Shown: positions 6,045-64,000 of the stretch, piece after piece
Layout of the letters: each line of letters opens with the position of its first letter
Numbering within the stretch: the first letter of the stretch is position 1
From: a virus
Length of the DNA: 64,000 nt
Direction: 5' to 3' (one strand)
IMG/VR virus record: IMGVR_UViG_3300008262_006988
Translations under genes and position numbers: made by a program
Notes under the pieces: generated by a model
Database searches by the model: none
Told to the model about the DNA's origin: nothing
The model's input: the letters and a program-made list of their open reading frames with translations, nothing else

Positions 6045-7220
6045 ATGATATTACGCAATTCACAGTATGTTGCATTTGGTAACATAGCAGCAAAAGAAGT
6101 CTGGTTAAACTATAACCGAGTATGGCCGGCGATAACTGTATGTTATAGTTGGTTAAAAAAGCCATTAGCTACAAACACATGGTCTGATATTGTATATGGA
6201 CCTGTTAATACTTTAGTAGCCACTGGTCTGAATGTATATTCGTATTCATTAGATAATGGCAATACATGGTCATCTCTTTCTACAATTAATACAGATGCTG
6301 GTAATGAATTTTTTAATGCTGTAGCTTATGGTAACAATATGTGGTCTATGGTAGAATTTGTGCCAGCTGTAGTGGGACAAGGTGCAAAATTCTTTTATAC
6401 AAGCGTTGATGTATTAACAGGTTGGACAAAAATACCTTTTGCAAATACAACTCTAAATCCTTTGTTTTCGACTTTCTCTTATACAGACATGAGTTTTAAT
6501 CCGTATAATAATAAATTTATTGCTTTTACTGATCAAAAGAATTTAACAGGCAATGATTGCAATGCAGCTGTAATATATTCAGATGATGGAGTCACCTGGT
6601 TGAGTGGAGGTTATTTTTATCAAAACGGAACTCGTGTAACATCTCCTCAAAGTTTTGGTAATGGAATAGCAATTGGTACCAACATGCCGAATAATCGATT
6701 AGCAACGTGTGGAAGTGCTGGTGAGCACAAATTTGCTTATTCGGACAACGGAGGATTAACTTGGATTCAAGGAAATTATAGTCCTGGCCCTACTGGACAA
6801 TATCTACAAGCAGGTTTTGGGGGTAATCAAACTGCCTATGGTTATGATGGAGGTCAATATATACCATTAAGTGGAAGATATGTGGTACCGAATTTATTTG
6901 GTACCACGGGAACATATCAATTTGCATATTCTGATGATGGAATTGGGTGGATTGGTGTAAGCTATATAAATTCCCCATCCTTGTCTGCTAATCTTTGTCA
7001 AGATTGGAGCTGTGTAGCGTATGCAAACGGTAAATTTGTAGCGTTGTCAAATGCCGGTGGTTACCAAGCTGTATCAAGAGACGGCATTAATTGGACCGGG
7101 TGTCAAAATATGCCTACCGCCACAAGCAACAAGGATATTGTTGTTGCAAATAATCGCTTTGTCGCTGTGGTTGATAACGAAGCTGGAAACAATAATGCTG
7201 TGATAGCAGATTTTGTTTAA
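6045..7220 (+). CDS. Putative fibre tip / receptor-binding beta-propeller (BNR/Asp-box repeats)
   Basis: Repeated SxDxGxTW Asp-boxes (SLDNGNTW, SDDGVTW, SDNGGLTW, SRDGINW) and AYGNN/AYANGKFVA motifs. Confidence 0.7.
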   Translation: MILRNSQYVAFGNIAAKEVWLNYNRVWPAITVCYSWLKKPLATNTWSDIVYGPVNTLVATGLNVYSYSLDNGNTWSSLSTINTDAGNEFFNAVAYGNNMWSMVEFVPAVVGQGAKFFYTSVDVLTGWTKIPFANTTLNPLFSTFSYTDMSFNPYNNKFIAFTDQKNLTGNDCNAAVIYSDDGVTWLSGGYFYQNGTRVTSPQSFGNGIAIGTNMPNNRLATCGSAGEHKFAYSDNGGLTWIQGNYSPGPTGQYLQAGFGGNQTAYGYDGGQYIPLSGRYVVPNLFGTTGTYQFAYSDDGIGWIGVSYINSPSLSANLCQDWSCVAYANGKFVALSNAGGYQAVSRDGINWTGCQNMPTATSNKDIVVANNRFVAVVDNEAGNNNAVIADFV

Positions 7221-7250
7221 AAAATTGTAGATTTTTTATATTACATCTAA

Positions 7251-7258
7251 TATAAATA
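7251..7258 (+). promoter_or_regulatory. T4-type late promoter upstream of hsp20
   Basis: Exact TATAAATA. Confidence 0.65.
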
Positions 7259-7262
7259 ATTA

Positions 7263-7294
7263 TAGCTCTGGTGCTCAACCGAGACTAGAAAGAC
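7263..7294 (+). repeat. Left arm of inverted repeat enclosing hsp20 (5' UTR)
   Basis: CTCTGGTGCTCAA (7266-7278) is the exact reverse complement of 7832-7844; pairing extends with G-U pairs. Confidence 0.85.
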
Positions 7295-7325
7295 ATATTA
7301 ACTCGCTTAATAAAGGAGAAAACAT

Positions 7326-7814
7326 ATGACAACAACACTAAAAACATACGAACCGGCCTACACAGTAGGTCACTATGGCAGCTCAAATTACCGGCTACCT
7401 GCCATTTTTAACGACAGCTGGTTTAATTCCCTATTCGGGGATATTGATAAGGCGTTTGAAATTCCAAACGCAGTATACCCTTACAATGTAAGGGCAACAA
7501 CTAACAAAGACGGTGAAGCTACTTCATATATTGTTGAGGTTGCACTAGCCGGTGTTGGTAAGAATAACATTGACATTAAAGTAAAAGATGGTCATCTTAA
7601 GATTAATGTCAATAAAGAAGAAGAAGGCGAAGAAGAAGCTGATACCACTTATGTCCGTAAAGGAATAAGTAAACGTAAAGGCAGTCTTTCTTTTGCCTTG
7701 AGTGAAAAAACTGATGCTAAGAGCATCACATCATCATACACGGATGGGCTTTTGCGAGTAACTGTCCCTGTAAAACAACCGGAGGTCTACAATATAGATA
7801 TTAAGGTTGACTAA
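7326..7814 (+). CDS. hsp20: Small heat-shock protein (Hsp20/alpha-crystallin family)
   Basis: YPYNV...EVALAG...YVRKGIS.R...F.L....DGLLRVTVP pattern; strong SD (AAGGAG) upstream. Confidence 0.92.
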   Translation: MTTTLKTYEPAYTVGHYGSSNYRLPAIFNDSWFNSLFGDIDKAFEIPNAVYPYNVRATTNKDGEATSYIVEVALAGVGKNNIDIKVKDGHLKINVNKEEEGEEEADTTYVRKGISKRKGSLSFALSEKTDAKSITSSYTDGLLRVTVPVKQPEVYNIDIKVD

Positions 7815-7848
7815 GTTTTGATAGTCTTTGTTTGAGCACCAGAGGCTA
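7815..7848 (+). repeat. Right arm of inverted repeat enclosing hsp20 (3' UTR)
   Basis: TTGAGCACCAGAG (7832-7844) plus TAGTCTT (7822-7828), complementary to the 5' UTR. Confidence 0.85.
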
Positions 7849-7862
7849 ACTTATATATAAAT

Positions 7863-8105
7863 ATGAAATTTGATACATTAATTGAAAAAACCATGGGTGG
7901 TTTAGGAAAAGGAAAATCAGTTGCTGATCTTGCTAAAATGCACAATGTATCGTCAACAGTTATAAAGAAGCAGCTTAAAAAAGGAACTAAAGTAGAGAAA
8001 GAGCACACAAAAAGCGCTAAGAAAGCAAAGCAAATTGCAAAAGATCACTTAGCCGAGAGACCGAGATACTATACTATGCTTCAAAAAGCAGAGAAGAGTA
8101 CATGA
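7863..8105 (+). CDS. Small basic phage protein (DUF5661-like)
   Basis: QLKKGTKVEKEHT...AKQIAKDHLAERPRYY motif. Confidence 0.65.
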   Translation: MKFDTLIEKTMGGLGKGKSVADLAKMHNVSSTVIKKQLKKGTKVEKEHTKSAKKAKQIAKDHLAERPRYYTMLQKAEKST

Positions 8106-29676: not shown

Positions 29677-29695
29677 TGTTACTATAAATAACGTT

Positions 29696-32600
29696 ATGGA
29701 GATTGTCTCTCTTAGTTCAACAAATTTTATCGGCTTATCCTCAAATTATGTATATGATAAGGCATTAAGATTTAAAGAAAATATCGTCTACACAGAAAAC
29801 GGGTTATATTTTCCAAAATCTAATGCTCTTACTAATGCAAATGACGTTGCAACAAATAATTTTTCACATTTATTTTTATCATATAAAGCACCACTAACCG
29901 ATAATATCTATATTAAAGATCTTGAACGGTTAGAAGATGAAGGGTTCTCTACATATCTTGCAATAAATGCGCTGAATGGTATTACCGGTGAGAGTACTTT
30001 TCTTGTCGTAGAAGAGCCTACTGTGGATGTAAATACTGCGAGCATTGCAATGACAGGTGCGGTGGATGCAATCGATAACCGGTATTTATTTGAAATAGAA
30101 TTTATTGATGATGCACTTTGTAGCGTCAAACATGAAACTAATCTCGAATCGAGATATATGACAGTAGATTATCTCGGTAATATTACATTTACTAAAAAAG
30201 GTAATTACGATCACTTATATGATTTAAGTCCACAGTTGTTTTATTACCTTTACGATAGAGAGCAAGATTATATAGTTTTTTATAAAAATATTAGCGATAT
30301 TGCAATGTACGTTACTTACAATATTTTTGAAGAAACGCTTACTCTCACCGAGCCTTTCACAGGTGTCTTAACACCCTATACGTCGTTAAGTATTTTTAAA
30401 TGTATAAATCGCAATGAAGCACCTAATGATACTAAATTGTTTGATTCATGGGTCGCTTATAATAAAGATCAAAAAACAAATTCCCAAGAAATATTTGCAA
30501 CACGGAGTACGGCAGCGATAGATTCCAATGTTCTTTTAAACGCAGAGTACAATTCTCTTTCCAGCAACTCTCTCGATTTAAATATTCTTTCTTTAAAAAA
30601 TACTAATACACCAGAAAATTTTCAATCACGCAATAACCCTTTTAGTTTTACAAAGACACCACTCTTTACAGAAGCTGAGTCAGATTTTAGAGATTATAAA
30701 CGCATATTTGCAGGTTCAAATCAGCTTCTCGGTAATGATAATATTACACTCGGTTACGATGCGTATACTACAGATATTGTTCTTAAGAGTGACAGTATCA
30801 CTTACTTTCATATACCACAAAATACGTATCCGTATATTCAATTAAATATAGGTGAATCAGGTCTCCAGGAGGCAGGTGCTATTGCAGGTGATCACCCTTT
30901 AAAGGCAGATAAGATATTTAAACGGCTTGGTAACAATAAATATACTTCGCATTTTGGTGAATCCATCGAAGAAGCGACAGGTAGTTTTCTTTGCACATGG
31001 CTATCTGGTAACCATAACCCAAATTCTAAACCTATATGGGTTGATAGATATTATAACCCTTCAAAAGTTTCATTTTTTGGAGCACTTTCAACAAATCAAG
31101 TTCAGTCAATAGTATATAAATCACTACTTGAGTGTCTTGCAGGTACAGTAGCTGACATTCTTAAAAACGTAACCGTGTTTGACAAGCCTTCTGATATGGT
31201 TCTTGAACCAGGTACGTATTATGCATATCACCACTACGGTCAAGATGATATAAGTAGGTATATTCTTTCTCTTAATAATCATCTAGTACAAGAAAATATT
31301 AATATAGTAAGAGATGCAGAGACAACATCAGAGGTTTTTTATGATGGTACTGAATATATGCTTGACGGTTCAATTTACGGTGTTACGAACAGTCTTTCTG
31401 CTATTCAAGATTCTGGTCAATTTACACTTTCGTTTTTTGCTCATAGCAATGATTGGACAAAGCCGTTTGCAGGCCAATTAATAGGTAATTATGCGACCGA
31501 TGGGTTTGGTATTTTTAATCAAAATACTTTAACACCGATGTTATATGTACCTACTCTTTGCGGTAGTGTCATCTTTAACACCGACATTACACCTATAAAA
31601 ACACTCACATATAAGAGTACTGCTGCTGCTTTCTTGCGACCTGCAGGTATTAGTAGTTATTACGTGGTACATACTGATGGGCAACTTAACAGATATAGTG
31701 CATCTGACACACTTTTACAGGAAATAACACTACCAGATTTTAAAAATTTTATATCGTATGATAGTACATTAACCGAAGATTACTTGCTTTACGGTAGTAT
31801 CGTAAACCCTGATAGACATATCGTTAAAGTAAATACTTCACAAGGTATCATAACCGATATTACAAATCAAGTTTTATCAGATTTAACAGCTCGTTTTGCA
31901 TACGATGTTGAGCGTAACTGGTATCCTACATCTTCAGGCTCTACTCTTTTAAAGCAAGCTTCCTCGATCGACTATTATAACGGTTATTTTTATCTTACAC
32001 CTGGTAAGTCAGCATCGCGTGTTGATGATACAATATATTACTTGCGCGACAATAATACTATAATGAAGTGGGATGATATTGAAGAAAATACTTCATTGCC
32101 AGCTGTTACTGCATTTAAATCAAAAACTGTTATTAATGATTTTGAAATCGACTATCAGAATAATATGTGGATATTAGCTGATAACAATAAATTTTACAAA
32201 TACACCCTCGAAAAAGAATTCATCTTATCAGGTGCACTTGATGATAAGGATTATACAAATTATAATATTGGGTTTATTGCGGATTTTTCTGATGGTGAGT
32301 ACTATCAGAGAGCAGTAATTACACGCATTGGTTATGAACAACTACCACCACCACCTGCTGACCCAACAAATACTAGTCTGTCTGCTCAAAATTACAATTT
32401 TAGTATGCTAGATATGCAGGGTAATTTACTCTCAAGCTTTAAGTATCAAACATTAACAGGTAGTGCAATTTTTGATCCATCTAACTCTGATTATTTGCGA
32501 AAATTTGTTAATAATAAGTATACAGAGAGCAATTTAAATGTAAAAGCTACACTTACAAATGCTTTTAATATCACTGACACCCTAACAATTGACTTGCCAC

Positions 32601-34769: not shown

Positions 34770-34811
34770 TATGTCATGTGGAAAGTACATGTAAAACAAT
34801 AAATAATTGAA

Positions 34812-35384
34812 ATGGCGACAATTTCTGTAGTAAAATTAAAAGTCAGGCGTGGTCCTGATAGACAGAGAAAACTTGTAATACTAGATAATGGTGAGTTAGG
34901 CTATACGACTGACCCGAGTGCAAATAGACTTTTTGTAGGTGATGGTGTTGCAAAGGGTGGTATTAGTACTTCAATGAAGTTCTTTTATGGTAGTATTACA
35001 ACGCCTTCTTCGCTTGTTTATACACAAATAGGTGATCTTGTTTACAATACTGATGACACACGTCTTTATATTTTGACAGGGATTGATTCAGATAATTTCC
35101 CCGACTATTCAAATAGACAGGCTTACCAGTTTATCGGTACAAGAGCTGATGATACTACGCTTACATACAACATTGCAGGAAGGTTGGCTGTTAAAACTAA
35201 CGGTATCGATGCAGCGCAAATATCTTCTAATGCTTTTGATTTTACTACAGGGTTTGATAGAGCGACGAGTACTAGTAAAATAAAAATTAATATAAATAAC
35301 ATCGATGCATCTTTACTACCGACTACTAACCCCGGGCCAGGTAAATTATGGAACAGTGGAGGATTCGTAAAAGTAGGAACGTAA
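34812..35384 (+). CDS. Short fibre protein with N-terminal VRRG...GELGY attachment module
   Basis: KLKVRRG...LDNGELGYTTD...LFVGDG. Confidence 0.65.
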   Translation: MATISVVKLKVRRGPDRQRKLVILDNGELGYTTDPSANRLFVGDGVAKGGISTSMKFFYGSITTPSSLVYTQIGDLVYNTDDTRLYILTGIDSDNFPDYSNRQAYQFIGTRADDTTLTYNIAGRLAVKTNGIDAAQISSNAFDFTTGFDRATSTSKIKININNIDASLLPTTNPGPGKLWNSGGFVKVGT

Positions 35385-37263: not shown

Positions 37264-37842
37264 ATGGCGATAATTAATCCAAACGGAACTGTAAGTGTAG
37301 GTAATGCCGCGGGTGCTGGACGCAGTGTCAACGGGCTTACGAGCGGTACACCTAACGTACAAACGAATATCACTACTAAAGAATCGACATATATGGGCGG
37401 TAACCCTGCAAGAATAACTGCAGCAGGCGCTGTTTGTATGCCGAGACAAGCACAAATCACAACACCAATACCAAACGTCTTTAATGGTAATGCTATAATT
37501 TACAATAACGTACAAACTACAGCATGGAGAAGTACAGCATTATCAGAATTCCGTGCGGCCTATACAACGAGACCATCGTTGACATGGGCGTCCTCAAATA
37601 CCGGTAATTTTAATACTGGTACTATAACAATCACTGTAACACCACCTGCTGATGCAAATATTGCTGGTACATGTTCAGTATATTTAGCAGGCGTTTCTAC
37701 TGCTTGGGAGACTGTAAATACAAGCAATCAAAGACAATATACTGTTGCCAGAGGTACAGTGTATACTGCATATGTTAAAGATATAAATAACTGTGGTGCA
37801 AATATGGAAATATCAGTTGGAAATATTCAATATACTGGTTAA
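37264..37842 (+). CDS. Putative fibre tip protein
   Basis: Thr/Gly/Asn-rich, follows the S74 fibre, AATAAATA upstream. Confidence 0.5.
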   Translation: MAIINPNGTVSVGNAAGAGRSVNGLTSGTPNVQTNITTKESTYMGGNPARITAAGAVCMPRQAQITTPIPNVFNGNAIIYNNVQTTAWRSTALSEFRAAYTTRPSLTWASSNTGNFNTGTITITVTPPADANIAGTCSVYLAGVSTAWETVNTSNQRQYTVARGTVYTAYVKDINNCGANMEISVGNIQYTG

Positions 37843-60514: not shown

Positions 60515-60560
60515 ATACACTAGTATTTATATTATTGATAATGAAATAATGTGTATTTTA

Positions 60561-62537
60561 TTAAAAATCCCACAAACGTAAAGCCCGATTTACACCATTT
60601 ATTGACATAACTAAAAATGTACCACTTGCAGTAACTGGTGTAGTAAATGTGCTTAATGTAGCGTGTGTTATTGATGCATTACGCAATTGAGTATTAGCGT
60701 TAAGATAAACATCCGCATTAAAATCCACTTGCCCTGTAAGTATGCCCCCTGCAAGAGGTAGATAGTTAACCTGATTTGTATATGCCAATTGCCAATTTGC
60801 AGAATTTGTCGCAACAGTGCTGTATGTTGATTCCCAGCGCGGTGATGCATTAACTGCACCCTGCCACCCTGCGCTTAAATTATAAACACTTGAATATGTA
60901 CTGTCATATCTAGTAACGTCAATAGGGGTACTCCATACAGCACTATATGTCCAGACAGTTGTATTTGTATCATTCCAAGCTGCACTACCTGCTGTTACCG
61001 CGCTCTGTACCTGTAAGTTTACAGCACTTTGTTGGCTAAAGAGGGTTGCTGTGGTATTCCATTTTGCGGAATTGCTATTAACGTTAGTATATGTATTTTC
61101 CCAATTACTAGTTAATGCTTTAAGATCTGTACCATTATAATCCCATGAAGCAGAGTTATTTCTTACAAAAGTTGATGTATAATCCCAGGTTCCTGAAAGT
61201 AAGTTTACTGTATTATGTGCAGCATTCCAATTAAGATAATTGTTATTGACAGTATTATAGGTATTTTGCCAGTTTCCTGTTAGAGCTCTTACACCGTAAT
61301 CAGCATTCCATGTTGCACTATTCGCTAATACCGTATTATATGTGTTTTCCCAATTGCTTGTTAATACTTTAACATCAGTGCCCGTATATCCCCAGCTGCT
61401 GGAATTAGTGCGCACCGCGCTGTAAACACTGCTCCAATTAGCGCTGGTGCTATTAACAGTTGTATATGTACTTTCCCACCTACCCGTAAGCACTTTAATA
61501 TCGGTTCCATTATATGACCAAAATGCTGAGTTTGTTTGTACAGTACTATATGTATCCTCCCAGTTGCCTGTAAGTGATATAAGAGCTGTATCGTTGGATG
61601 CCCATTGAGCAGAGTTGTTTTGTACAGTAGTCGATATATCAATCCATGTACTACTGTTGGTTCTTACATTAGTGTATGTATTCTGCCAGTTTCCTGTAAG
61701 CGCTCTTACCCCAAAATCTGTAGAATTATCAATAGCCCACTGTGCCGAGTTAGCATTTACAACAGTAAAGGTATTATTCCATGTTCCACTGTTATTATTA
61801 ACGTTGGTATATGTATTTTCCCAGTTACCAGTAAGTGATATAAGAGCTGTATCGTTGGATGCCCATTGAGCTGAATTAGCATTTACAATGGAAGAAGTAT
61901 CGGACCATGTTCCGCTGTTACTAATGACGTTGGTATATGTGTTCTCCCAGTTGCCTGTAAGTGATATAAGAGCTGTATCGTTGGATGCCCACTGTGCCGA
62001 GTTAGCATTTACAATAGATGAAGTATCGGACCATGCTCCGGAATTGGCATTTAATATAGCGGTACTATCATTCCATATATTATAATTGCTATTAAAAAGA
62101 AAAGAGGTATTATCCCATGTAGCAGATTCACTGCGCATTGTAGTCTCAGTGTCTGCCCATCCGCCGCTATTTAATGCAAAGAGACTCTCCACATCATTCC
62201 AACCCGCACTATTAGCGCGCATGATATTGTATGTGTTATCCCAATCTATAGTATTGAGGCCACCCCAGCCGGCACTAAGAGTTCTTACAGTCTGGTAAGT
62301 AGACTGAAAATTACCGCTGTTCGTGACGTACGATGTGGAGGCAGTGTTCCAGAGCCCGCTTGATCCATATATGAGCGTCTGTGTCGTATTGTATACGTTA
62401 TTAAGTAGGTCTAATACAGGTATTCTTAATTCAGATTTTACACCGGTATCTTCATAGCCGACGAAATAGCTAGAAAGAATTAAATTATTCTTGTTTTTAA
62501 GCGTGAAATCTGAAAATTTCTTTGTACTAAAAGCCAT
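60561..62537 (-). CDS. Fibre protein with W-periodic repeat stalk
   Basis: NSAQWASNDTALISLTGNWE x3 and related units; TATAAATA at 62543-62550. Confidence 0.75.
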   Translation of the reverse strand: MAFSTKKFSDFTLKNKNNLILSSYFVGYEDTGVKSELRIPVLDLLNNVYNTTQTLIYGSSGLWNTASTSYVTNSGNFQSTYQTVRTLSAGWGGLNTIDWDNTYNIMRANSAGWNDVESLFALNSGGWADTETTMRSESATWDNTSFLFNSNYNIWNDSTAILNANSGAWSDTSSIVNANSAQWASNDTALISLTGNWENTYTNVISNSGTWSDTSSIVNANSAQWASNDTALISLTGNWENTYTNVNNNSGTWNNTFTVVNANSAQWAIDNSTDFGVRALTGNWQNTYTNVRTNSSTWIDISTTVQNNSAQWASNDTALISLTGNWEDTYSTVQTNSAFWSYNGTDIKVLTGRWESTYTTVNSTSANWSSVYSAVRTNSSSWGYTGTDVKVLTSNWENTYNTVLANSATWNADYGVRALTGNWQNTYNTVNNNYLNWNAAHNTVNLLSGTWDYTSTFVRNNSASWDYNGTDLKALTSNWENTYTNVNSNSAKWNTTATLFSQQSAVNLQVQSAVTAGSAAWNDTNTTVWTYSAVWSTPIDVTRYDSTYSSVYNLSAGWQGAVNASPRWESTYSTVATNSANWQLAYTNQVNYLPLAGGILTGQVDFNADVYLNANTQLRNASITHATLSTFTTPVTASGTFLVMSINGVNRALRLWDF

Positions 62538-62545
62538 ACTATTAT

Positions 62546-64000
62546 TTATAGGGTGTACATTATATTTAAACCGTCCTCTGTTACTATATATTCACCTTCA
62601 AAAGTAATGTAAGGTACCGGCGGGTCAATGTGTCCCCAAACAAATGCGTTATCAGATTCGTCTATGCTTCCTGTTCTTGTACCAAGAGTAGCGTAATTGT
62701 CAAATTCTGTTAAAAATACAGGGTTCGCAAAATTTAAATTCAGCACATCCATTGTTGGCATGTACATTGTCTGTGTTTTTATGGCTACAGCGCCGTTTAT
62801 ATATGCAAATTCTATAACAAAAATATAAAACATACACGACACATCACGTCCGACGTATGTTAATTTGTATATATCAGTATCGCTATTATAAGTTAATACA
62901 GGTTTATCAATCTCAACAATATTAAGCTCAATACTCTTGTCAATTAATGAGAATCCGCGCAACATTTCAAAGGTAAGAGTCTCATCGCGTTCTTGCGGAT
63001 ATACCTGTGAAAATTCTTTAGTACCTATGTCGTGTATAAAGATTTTTGGGTAAATTATTTTGTAGTTTGATGCACTTAGTTCTGGTAAGATGCACATCTT
63101 ACAGACTAAAAGATTATTATTAATCTCATCAAACCATACTGTTGATAATTTTTCAAAATTAATATTAACACCTTTTGAAATGGCGTTCATGGTGCCGGTG
63201 TTACTGTATATCGTGTTACCGTCCGGTGATGGTACAACTGCATCAAAGACAGCATAATTTTCTGTCTCAATTAATATAGTATCATAGTAAATGTCGAAGT
63301 TAATTACTTTACTATATATTTCTTGCTGTATATCGTAGTTATACTTTACAAAAATCGCACTAAGAGCTGATGAAAGAGGTATTACTTCAGAGTCTGATGC
63401 ACGTCTAAAATACATATCACCGTATGCTTTAAACTCTGCGTCATATATAGTTTTATTTTCTGTTACATAAGAGGATGTAGTATCGACAACAGTTTCACGT
63501 AACGGAATATGGTAGTCGAGGAAGAAGGATGTCTCTGTGTAAAGCGTTGGTGCACTTTCCGCACCACAAGGTGCACCACTATTTGCAACAAAATAAAAAC
63601 TACCATCATAATCACCAATAGATGTAAAGGGTGGTGTGTATGTGAATTCACCTGGGTAAGCGAATGTAGCGCGGTATGTTGGTAAGTTTAAGTGATTGAC
63701 ACCACCATCAACAAGTTCTTGATAATAAAGACCAGCATCGTTAGGATCATAGGAAGGACTGTCTGATGGTACATCAGGTAACTGTGCATCATTTGATAGA
63801 GTAAACGTCTGACCATCTTTTACATTACAATCGTATTTTACGTCAATATAATCACTGCAAAAGCTCTCTGGTTGAAAGTCATACGAGGCTATTACGTAAT
63901 CTACACCGGATAACGGAAACATACCGTTTCCTGAAGGTGTGTTATTGAGTGTTGATGTTGAGGTCTTAAGAATAACACCTGAATAACCTTTTTCTTCATC
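62546..64000 (-). CDS. Large structural protein (5' end beyond the window)
   Basis: Frame stays open from 63922 to the window edge; acidic, aromatic-rich. Confidence 0.65.
   Translation of the reverse strand, partial: DEEKGYSGVILKTSTSTLNNTPSGNGMFPLSGVDYVIASYDFQPESFCSDYIDVKYDCNVKDGQTFTLSNDAQLPDVPSDSPSYDPNDAGLYYQELVDGGVNHLNLPTYRATFAYPGEFTYTPPFTSIGDYDGSFYFVANSGAPCGAESAPTLYTETSFFLDYHIPLRETVVDTTSSYVTENKTIYDAEFKAYGDMYFRRASDSEVIPLSSALSAIFVKYNYDIQQEIYSKVINFDIYYDTILIETENYAVFDAVVPSPDGNTIYSNTGTMNAISKGVNINFEKLSTVWFDEINNNLLVCKMCILPELSASNYKIIYPKIFIHDIGTKEFSQVYPQERDETLTFEMLRGFSLIDKSIELNIVEIDKPVLTYNSDTDIYKLTYVGRDVSCMFYIFVIEFAYINGAVAIKTQTMYMPTMDVLNLNFANPVFLTEFDNYATLGTRTGSIDESDNAFVWGHIDPPVPYITFEGEYIVTEDGLNIMYTL

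Follow-up and report, generated by a model that had tools for sequence, protein, structure and literature searches.

Complementary untranslated ends of an hsp20 message in an uncultured T4-like phage and what their pairing may do

Introduction

The viral record IMGVR_UViG_3300008262_006988 of IMG/VR, of which 64,000 nucleotides (nt) were analysed here and are referred to as the window, contains an hsp20 gene whose untranslated regions (UTRs) on the 5' and 3' sides are complementary to each other, and this raises the question of whether the two ends of the message pair and, if they do, what a message closed in this way would be for. An original prediction, made from the letters of the DNA without database searches, had described the complementarity as a clamp on the hsp20 mRNA and had offered end protection, RNase III-type processing, thermal switching or ribosome recycling as its function. 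The analysis reported here indicates that the long-range helix is very probably a real functional RNA structure; that its main role would be that of a clamp protecting both mRNA ends is a model for and against which we consider the chances to be evenly balanced. The original interpretation is, taken as a whole, partly supported: end protection fits best among the functions it listed, and it missed both a ROSE-type hairpin over the Shine-Dalgarno (SD) sequence and a predicted local hairpin, hairpin I, which would compete with the long helix.

Results

The hsp20 open reading frame (ORF; 7326..7814, + strand, 162 aa) matches the Pfam family HSP20 (PF00011, E = 6e-18) and ends in a TAA stop codon (7812-7814, +). 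Upstream of it lies a T4-type late promoter, TATAAATA (7251..7258, +), and the transcription start (+1) was placed at A7264, the sixth base past this motif, since in the late genes at 29696 and 62537(-) of the same window ATAAATA stands 5 nt ahead of the ATG, which is likewise the sixth base past the motif. The 5' arm of the long-range helix (7264..7294, +) starts at this predicted +1 and consists of an outer AG, a 13-nt core, C7280 and the segments GAGACUA (7281-7287) and AAGAC (7290-7294), while the 3' arm (7815..7847, +), which includes one bulged G (7844 or 7845), begins at the first base past the stop codon.

The core CTCTGGTGCTCAA (7266-7278) is the exact reverse complement of TTGAGCACCAGAG (7832-7844), giving 13 bp, and the 13-mer is found at these two sites only in the whole 64-kb window. 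Beyond the bulged G, on the outer side of the core, A7264 pairs with U7847 and G7265 with C7846; on the inner side follow C7280-G7830, for which the minimum free energy (MFE) fold uses C7279 instead, seven pairs between GAGACUA and UAGUCUU (7822-7828), including G7281.U7828, and, after a 2x2 internal loop, five pairs between AAGAC and GUUUU (7815-7819), including G7292.U7817. Counted from the predicted +1, the helix comprises 28 bp, is imperfect and contains two G.U pairs. The original prediction had the perfect core, both inner extensions and the length of about 28 bp right, and slightly overstated the G-U pairs as several. Its outer TAGC/GCTA extension holds insofar as pairing does continue beyond the core, but C7266 had been counted twice and T7263 precedes the predicted start. 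The placement of the left arm where the late promoter would initiate, of the right arm directly past the stop codon, and of the SD (7313-7318) outside a helix whose 5' arm ends at 7294, was also borne out.

Chance can be excluded as the source of this helix, since the duplex formed by the 5' and 3' flanks of hsp20 (-42.3 kcal/mol) lies beyond the best of 1500 non-cognate flank pairs (-33.5 kcal/mol; -14.9 +/- 4.4 kcal/mol for such pairs). The next best gene of the window reaches -26.8 kcal/mol, and end-pairing is no general habit of the phage, being found in hsp20 alone among 69 window genes. Both the MFE and the centroid fold of 7262-7850 close the mRNA by the long-range helix (-180 kcal/mol, z = -8.1), and in the ensemble the core has a probability of 1.00 for the window and a median of 0.95 over 50 aligned loci (the window and 49 relatives).

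A homologue search returned 297 hsp20 protein relatives at E <= 1e-10, and a profile search of IMG/VR returned 78 loci, 60 of them non-redundant and with both flanks. The fold-back is kept in 50 of the 60 despite widely differing arm sequences, as illustrated by the 5'/3' arms CUUCGGCGCUCAA/UUGAGCGCCGAAG, CCUAGUGUUC/..AACACUAGG, UCUCUGACGCUCG/CGAGCGUCAGAGA and CUGGGGCUCUUGUG/CACAAGAGUCCCAG; the original prediction had proposed looking for covarying complementarity in phage hsp20 loci and had suspected selection at the RNA level, and the covariation found agrees with both. In a MAFFT alignment of the 50 whole messages the outer helix is 84.7% paired, double-sided changes occur in 14 of its 15 pairs, and RNAalifold recovers the core unaided. 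The covariation score of 0.237, compared with 0.151 in shuffles, was reached by none of 500 shuffles, and when the partner was slid by 1-3 columns pairing stood at 32-48% where it had been 73%. The mean energy is -34 kcal/mol for cognate duplexes as against -22 kcal/mol for non-cognate ones, with per-locus medians of 28 bp and -35.6 kcal/mol. At closer range, one and the same pair is A-U in L049, G.U in L047 and G-C in L063, three close relatives, and the window differs from its nearest relative (L004, 83% protein identity) in at least three compensated pairs. Most relatives also have an (A)TAAATA-like motif at the matching distance from the left arm. In the one scan made, over 185,579 species genomes and with a two-peptide pre-filter followed by tblastn confirmation, no close cellular homologue came up, the best match to hsp20 being a Sphingomonas protein with 26% identity; at the DNA level the region matched none of 50,697 phage records, and cultured phages gave only distant hsp20 protein matches (29–36% identity).

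Arms of this kind could in principle be DNA-level inverted repeats marking a mobile or recombining hsp20 cassette and kept alike through gene conversion, an explanation that finds some encouragement in the DNA beyond the arms, which is unrelated between close relatives, and in the hsp20 neighbourhoods, which vary and are often near tRNA genes. The complementarity, however, ends at the transcript boundary, that is at the predicted +1 on the left, where transcription starts, and at the arm end on the right, and over the 50 loci the 12 nt outside each arm show 6.22 matches in cognate and 6.18 in non-cognate combinations (p = 0.43). The sense strand also folds better than the antisense strand, its duplex being the more stable one in 32 of the 50 loci (p = 0.0045). 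In the printed 3' arms of many relatives, which otherwise differ greatly, one bulged G can be read 3-5 bp inside the outer end; gene conversion is disfavoured because it would erase a bulge recurring among unrelated arm sequences, and the conserved asymmetric loops likewise speak against homogenisation. The 3' arms of several loci match no more of hairpin I than its 5' strand and loop, and because the 3' UTRs of L026, L054 and L067 have no hairpin of their own and yet pair with the 5'-terminal strand and loop, the 3' arm is not merely a mirrored hairpin copy. The signs of terminal inverted repeats of a transposon or a miniature inverted-repeat transposable element are missing, with no further exact copy of the core 13-mer in the window and no target-site duplication visible in the flanks; DNA terminal repeats were what the original prediction had named as able to overturn it, and with no complementarity outside the transcript either, the RNA reading stands. 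We regard the cassette explanation as extremely improbable, and the pairing is, judging from the compared sequences, under RNA-level selection and not a DNA repeat.

Some related candidates were tried and rejected. An account of the whole as two inverted copies of one hairpin fails because many loci have a weak 3' UTR hairpin or none at all. If the repeat is carried on into the promoter, to 28 nt at 79%, the added complementarity is AT-rich chance and no better than non-cognate over the 50 loci, a supposed antisense late promoter in the right flank reads TATATATA and not TATAAATA and is unconserved among relatives, and a tRNA-acceptor-like reading of GAGCACCA has no CCA end in register.

Downstream of the 5' arm, in the leader sequence AACUCGCUUAAUAAAGGAG, CUC(G)CUU (7302-7308) pairs with the SD AAGGAG (7313-7318), forming a ROSE-type SD hairpin, hairpin II (7302..7318, +), of 6 bp (C7302-G7318, U7303-A7317, C7304-G7316, C7306-G7315, U7307-A7314 and U7308-A7313, with G7305 bulged and an AAUA loop). 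Its free energy is -3.0 kcal/mol at 37 C and -5.2 kcal/mol at 20 C, and its anti-SD UCGCU occupies 7303-7307. ROSE-like thermometers of small heat-shock genes are defined by just this motif, U(U/C)GCU placed opposite the SD (PMC3669281). A ROSE-type motif is present in all 50 fold-back loci, in L069 and L075 as a CUUGCUC/GAGGAG variant, and 69 of the 72 occurrences of the leader motif in IMG/VR are followed by an hsp20 gene. It was also seen ahead of non-hsp20 ORFs of 71, 71 and 63 aa (L094, L129 and L105), two of them near-identical. With the Rfam ROSE models 7200-7900 gave no match at E <= 10, nor did any of 20 relatives, so the leader is called ROSE-like by mechanism and not as a member of the Rfam family; a match to the Rfam model freshwater-2 (21.8 bits, compared with a gathering score of 49.9) was treated as chance. 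No ROSE-type thermometer seems to have been noted on a phage gene before this candidate.

The original prediction had set the long helix apart from the local ROSE hairpins of bacterial small heat-shock genes and had considered it as a thermal switch in its own right. The first of these points overlooked hairpin II in the same leader, and the second is at odds with predicted stabilities: at about -40 kcal/mol the long helix is far too stable to melt, and temperature would probably be sensed by hairpin II, whose hold on the SD is weak (-3 kcal/mol at 37 C).

The 5'-terminal bases have a local alternative as well. Hairpin I (7267..7289, +; UCUGGU.CUC / GAGACUAGA, AACC loop, -9.3 kcal/mol) shares the 5' bases of the long-range helix, and its equivalent is the MFE structure of nearly every relative's leader in per-sequence folds (mean z about -2.1). 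In full-length folds hairpin I loses to the 3' fold-back, by about 30 kcal/mol at equilibrium.

The ten loci without the fold-back form one clade (support 92/86) with a homologous local 5' hairpin and a canonical terminator, and have no SD, ROSE motif or fold-back. A late promoter, hairpin I at +1, the U(U/C)GCU/SD hairpin and a canonical terminator are all found in two cultured phages, Pelagibacter phage Mosig and Synechococcus phage S-SKS1; pairing between the hsp20 5' and 3' ends is not significant in Mosig, S-SKS1 or S-T4 (fraction of shuffles pairing at least as well 0.11, 0.51 and 0.98), and it is missing from 66 of 67 further loci with a ROSE-like leader motif, mostly of cyanophage type. 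Since the sister clade, Mosig and S-SKS1 combine a local 5' hairpin with a canonical terminator and show no end-pairing, the fold-back is, on this comparison, a clade-specific replacement of the 3' terminator hairpin. In the window no intrinsic terminator was found after hsp20, the 3' UTR hairpin having -7.9 kcal/mol, z = -1.3 and no U-run. A run of at least four T within 16 nt past the 3' arm is present in 23 of the 50 loci, as against 31 of 200 control windows, which is consistent with terminator ancestry.

The same T-run could mean that the arms make up a split intrinsic terminator or insulator, with the 3' arm and U-run as its downstream half and the transcript 5' end as its upstream half, and the canonical terminator at the equivalent position in the sister clade and the cultured phages fits this idea. 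The window itself, however, is without a U-run, about half of the relatives show a TATAAT-like motif and a tRNA gene instead, and a 550-nt ribosome-loaded loop would be kinetically unfavourable for termination. We consider such a terminator improbable; it could coexist with protection of the ends.

A few observations on these other leaders may be recorded. The Mosig locus (L083; 431-525 and 976-1025) shows the late promoter, the +1 hairpin I, a CUUUGCUU/AAGGAGG hairpin and a strong terminator, and a match of 7 of 8 bases between its terminator loop and the 5' end was not significant. In loci of cyanophage type (L086-L165, e.g., L087, L108 and L143; hsp20 of about 144 aa) a tetraloop-capped hairpin I, GGAUGCC-GAAA/UUCG/GUAA-GGGUCC with many compensated variants, is followed by ACUCGCUU..AAAGGAG, and many of them have a conserved 3' UTR block, AUAUCGUCG(G/C)CGC ... 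ACUGGCAAAAUCCAG.

As regards the surroundings of the gene, PHROG matches (baseplate wedge, long tail fibre) identify the window as a T4-like myovirus, and hsp20 lies in a structural region, between tail-fibre-like genes and a DUF5661 gene. A second late-promoter motif TATAAATA (7856..7863, +) stands 8 nt past the 3' arm and overlaps the first ATG of the DUF5661 ORF; in the window, terminator prediction gave none on the + strand between these two genes. With the promoter motif over its first ATG (7863), the DUF5661 ORF has its Pfam match from residue 22 (window 7856-7895), and given a predicted transcript start at about 7869 the second ATG (7893) would be its true start. The motif (T)ATAAATA occurs 3-6 nt before the start codons of many late or structural genes (window 29683-29698, 62535-62550(-), 34795-34814, 709-722, 37782-37795 and 60518-60531(-)). 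The coincidence of the ATG with the predicted +1 in two cases suggests that late mRNAs may be leaderless; an SD-like motif of any kind occurs in 7 of 68 window ORFs, and a strong SD in hsp20 only.

In loci such as L008, L015 and L017 tRNA genes flank hsp20, and beyond the 3' arm, immediately ahead of the tRNA on the downstream side, there is a TATAAT(A) motif. Elsewhere in the window an 18-nt inverted repeat (34825-34842 / 35233-35250, 94% complementary, arms 390 nt apart) lies inside or around ORF 34812-35384; inverted repeats of the window other than the hsp20 arms are AT-rich and bracket no genes. The whole-mRNA alignment also gave, with RNAalifold, a hairpin within the hsp20 ORF (7390..7422, +; codons 22-33), in which ACCGGCU (7390-7396) and AGCUGGU (7416-7422) form 7 bp. 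This hairpin covaries among the 50 loci through synonymous third positions (CAA/CAG with AGU/AGC) and through Leu CUN/UUR with Ser/Asn AGY/AAY; its pair 7394/7418, both third codon positions, is AU in 27 cases, GC in 16, UA in 2 and CG in 2.

Discussion

How protection of the ends would work can be outlined from the predicted folds. Transcribed from the late promoter with its start at A7264, the hsp20 message would have as its leader a two-part ROSE-like element, with the 5'-terminal 30 nt in hairpin I and the SD hidden by hairpin II. Hairpin I would presumably form first and then be displaced by the finished 3' UTR, whose 33 nt are complementary to its 5' strand, loop and 3' strand, so that the ends may zip into about 28 bp. 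The 5' end of the zipped message would not be free, and neither would the 3' end where transcription stops or is trimmed at that point, and the clamp may in this state resist both 5'-end-dependent and 3'-exonucleolytic decay. It would take over the jobs done in sister phages by the 5' hairpin and the 3' terminator hairpin, control of translation probably remaining with SD hairpin II. In ROSE-like leaders a stabilising effect on the transcript is attributed to the stable hairpin I at the 5' end (PMC3669281), the hbs mRNA is shielded from RNase Y by pairing of its 5' and 3' UTRs (PMC5737220), and full-length hok mRNA is stabilised through tac/fbi pairing (PMC9841398).

Several points weigh against this reading. 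Behind the 3' arm of the window there is no U-run or terminator, and the next late promoter is 8 nt away; the transcript may therefore run on beyond the arm, in which case its 3' end could be protected only after processing. In addition, the inner 12-15 nt of the helix have to be opened by ribosomes that terminate at the stop codon. On a leader-only MAFFT alignment RNAalifold gave no consensus for hairpin I, support for which is confined to per-sequence folds, the covariation statistics given above ignore shared ancestry, and no cultured phage with the fold-back was found in the phage searches.

Long stems cut by RNase III flank the 16S and 23S rRNAs and the T7 early mRNAs, and a helix of about 28 bp falls within the known length range of substrates of this enzyme. 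By analogy, host RNase III might excise the hsp20 mRNA from read-through late transcripts, leaving its ends paired and stable. With 28 bp the helix has the length of about two helical turns expected of such a stem, read-through is likely since no terminator lies between hsp20 and its same-strand neighbours on either side in the window, and a single bulged G and asymmetric internal loops persist through very different arms. On the other hand, the helix stops at the predicted primary 5' end and does not continue into upstream RNA, a boundary for which a processing stem has no need, and a U-run follows the arm in half of the relatives. Excision by RNase III is in our judgement distinctly unlikely to be the main function.

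It is possible, though unlikely, that fold-back, hairpin I and ROSE hairpin together constitute a programmed switch on a chaperone gene similar to that of hok, in which the nascent RNA would be held in hairpin I, the completed RNA would be a stable, translationally restrained store, and slow 3' trimming or heat would reverse the fold-back, its release changing access to the SD. The architecture does parallel that of hok (PMC9841398), with a 5'-terminal element, a predicted local hairpin of the same bases, a 3' fold-back and an SD held by an upstream anti-SD, and since a ROSE-like element of Pseudomonas is derepressed when its hairpin I is disrupted (PMC3669281), exchanging hairpin I for the fold-back could tune the sensor. 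However, inspection revealed no conserved pairing of a 5' element with the anti-SD CUCGCUU, the equivalent of tac/ucb, the sole candidate for it (CGAG, 7280-7283) being missing from many relatives; the SD hairpin is predicted to form with the ends paired or unpaired; and a toxin is lacking, nor was an antisense RNA identified. Were a hok-like switch nevertheless at work, chaperone synthesis would be timed by transcript completion, transcript age and temperature through refolding of the mRNA, and in half of the relatives the fold-back would serve as a terminator as well, with the transcript 5' end as its upstream half.

Comparison with known systems

Very few bacterial or phage mRNAs (hok, hbs, icaR and RNAIII) are known to pair end to end, and here a helix of about 28 bp, on one gene only, has been maintained through compensatory changes in a whole clade of T4-like phages that are abundant and uncultured. 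Natural controls exist in the sister phages with an ordinary terminator and in Mosig and S-SKS1 with their two-hairpin leader, so the contribution of end-pairing to mRNA life and thermosensing is directly testable, and Mosig is a possible experimental system. Literature searches found no paper describing end-to-end pairing of hsp20 and none combining cyanophage, hsp20 and RNA thermometer.

Among the systems described so far, the 5'/3' interactions of hbs, icaR and RNAIII are shorter than the phage hsp20 helix (PMC5737220, PMC3868564, PMC7821165). The pairing in Bacillus subtilis hbs is of 14 bp and is not conserved in close relatives (PMC5737220; review PMC7821165), and that in Staphylococcus aureus icaR masks the ribosome-binding site (PMC3868564), whereas the phage helix pairs the very 5' end, leaves the ribosome-binding site out and covaries across a whole phage clade. 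With the RNase III stems of rRNAs and T7 early mRNAs it shares a long-range or flanking duplex that brackets a functional RNA; in contrast to these it begins at the predicted primary transcription start, and its cleavage is only hypothesised.

The leader resembles ROSE-like thermometers (hspA, ibpA and the short two-hairpin form of Pseudomonas; PMC3669281) in its bulged-G U(U/C)GCU/SD pairing within the 3'-proximal hairpin, in the stable hairpin I predicted ahead of it at the 5' end, and in its position upstream of a small heat-shock protein gene. It differs in matching no Rfam ROSE model, in a hairpin II of 6 bp only, in being phage-encoded and under a late promoter rather than sigma-32, and in a hairpin I that is overridden by the 3' UTR fold-back, unlike in any described ROSE element.

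The hok mRNA of the hok/sok system of plasmid R1 (PMC9841398) comes closer still, since there, too, a 5'-terminal element pairs with its own 3' UTR and the SD is held through an upstream anti-SD, while the fold-back stabilises the message and the same 5' bases are first in a local hairpin, as would probably be the case in the phage. The phage gene encodes a chaperone instead of a toxin, and neither an antisense RNA nor a pairing of the tac/ucb type was found; its helix is longer (about 28 bp), its anti-SD is a ROSE motif and there is no sequence relationship. By this analogy, the tac/fbi pairing of hok would be the nearest analogue in mechanism to the closed hsp20 message, as a resemblance and not as membership of the same family.

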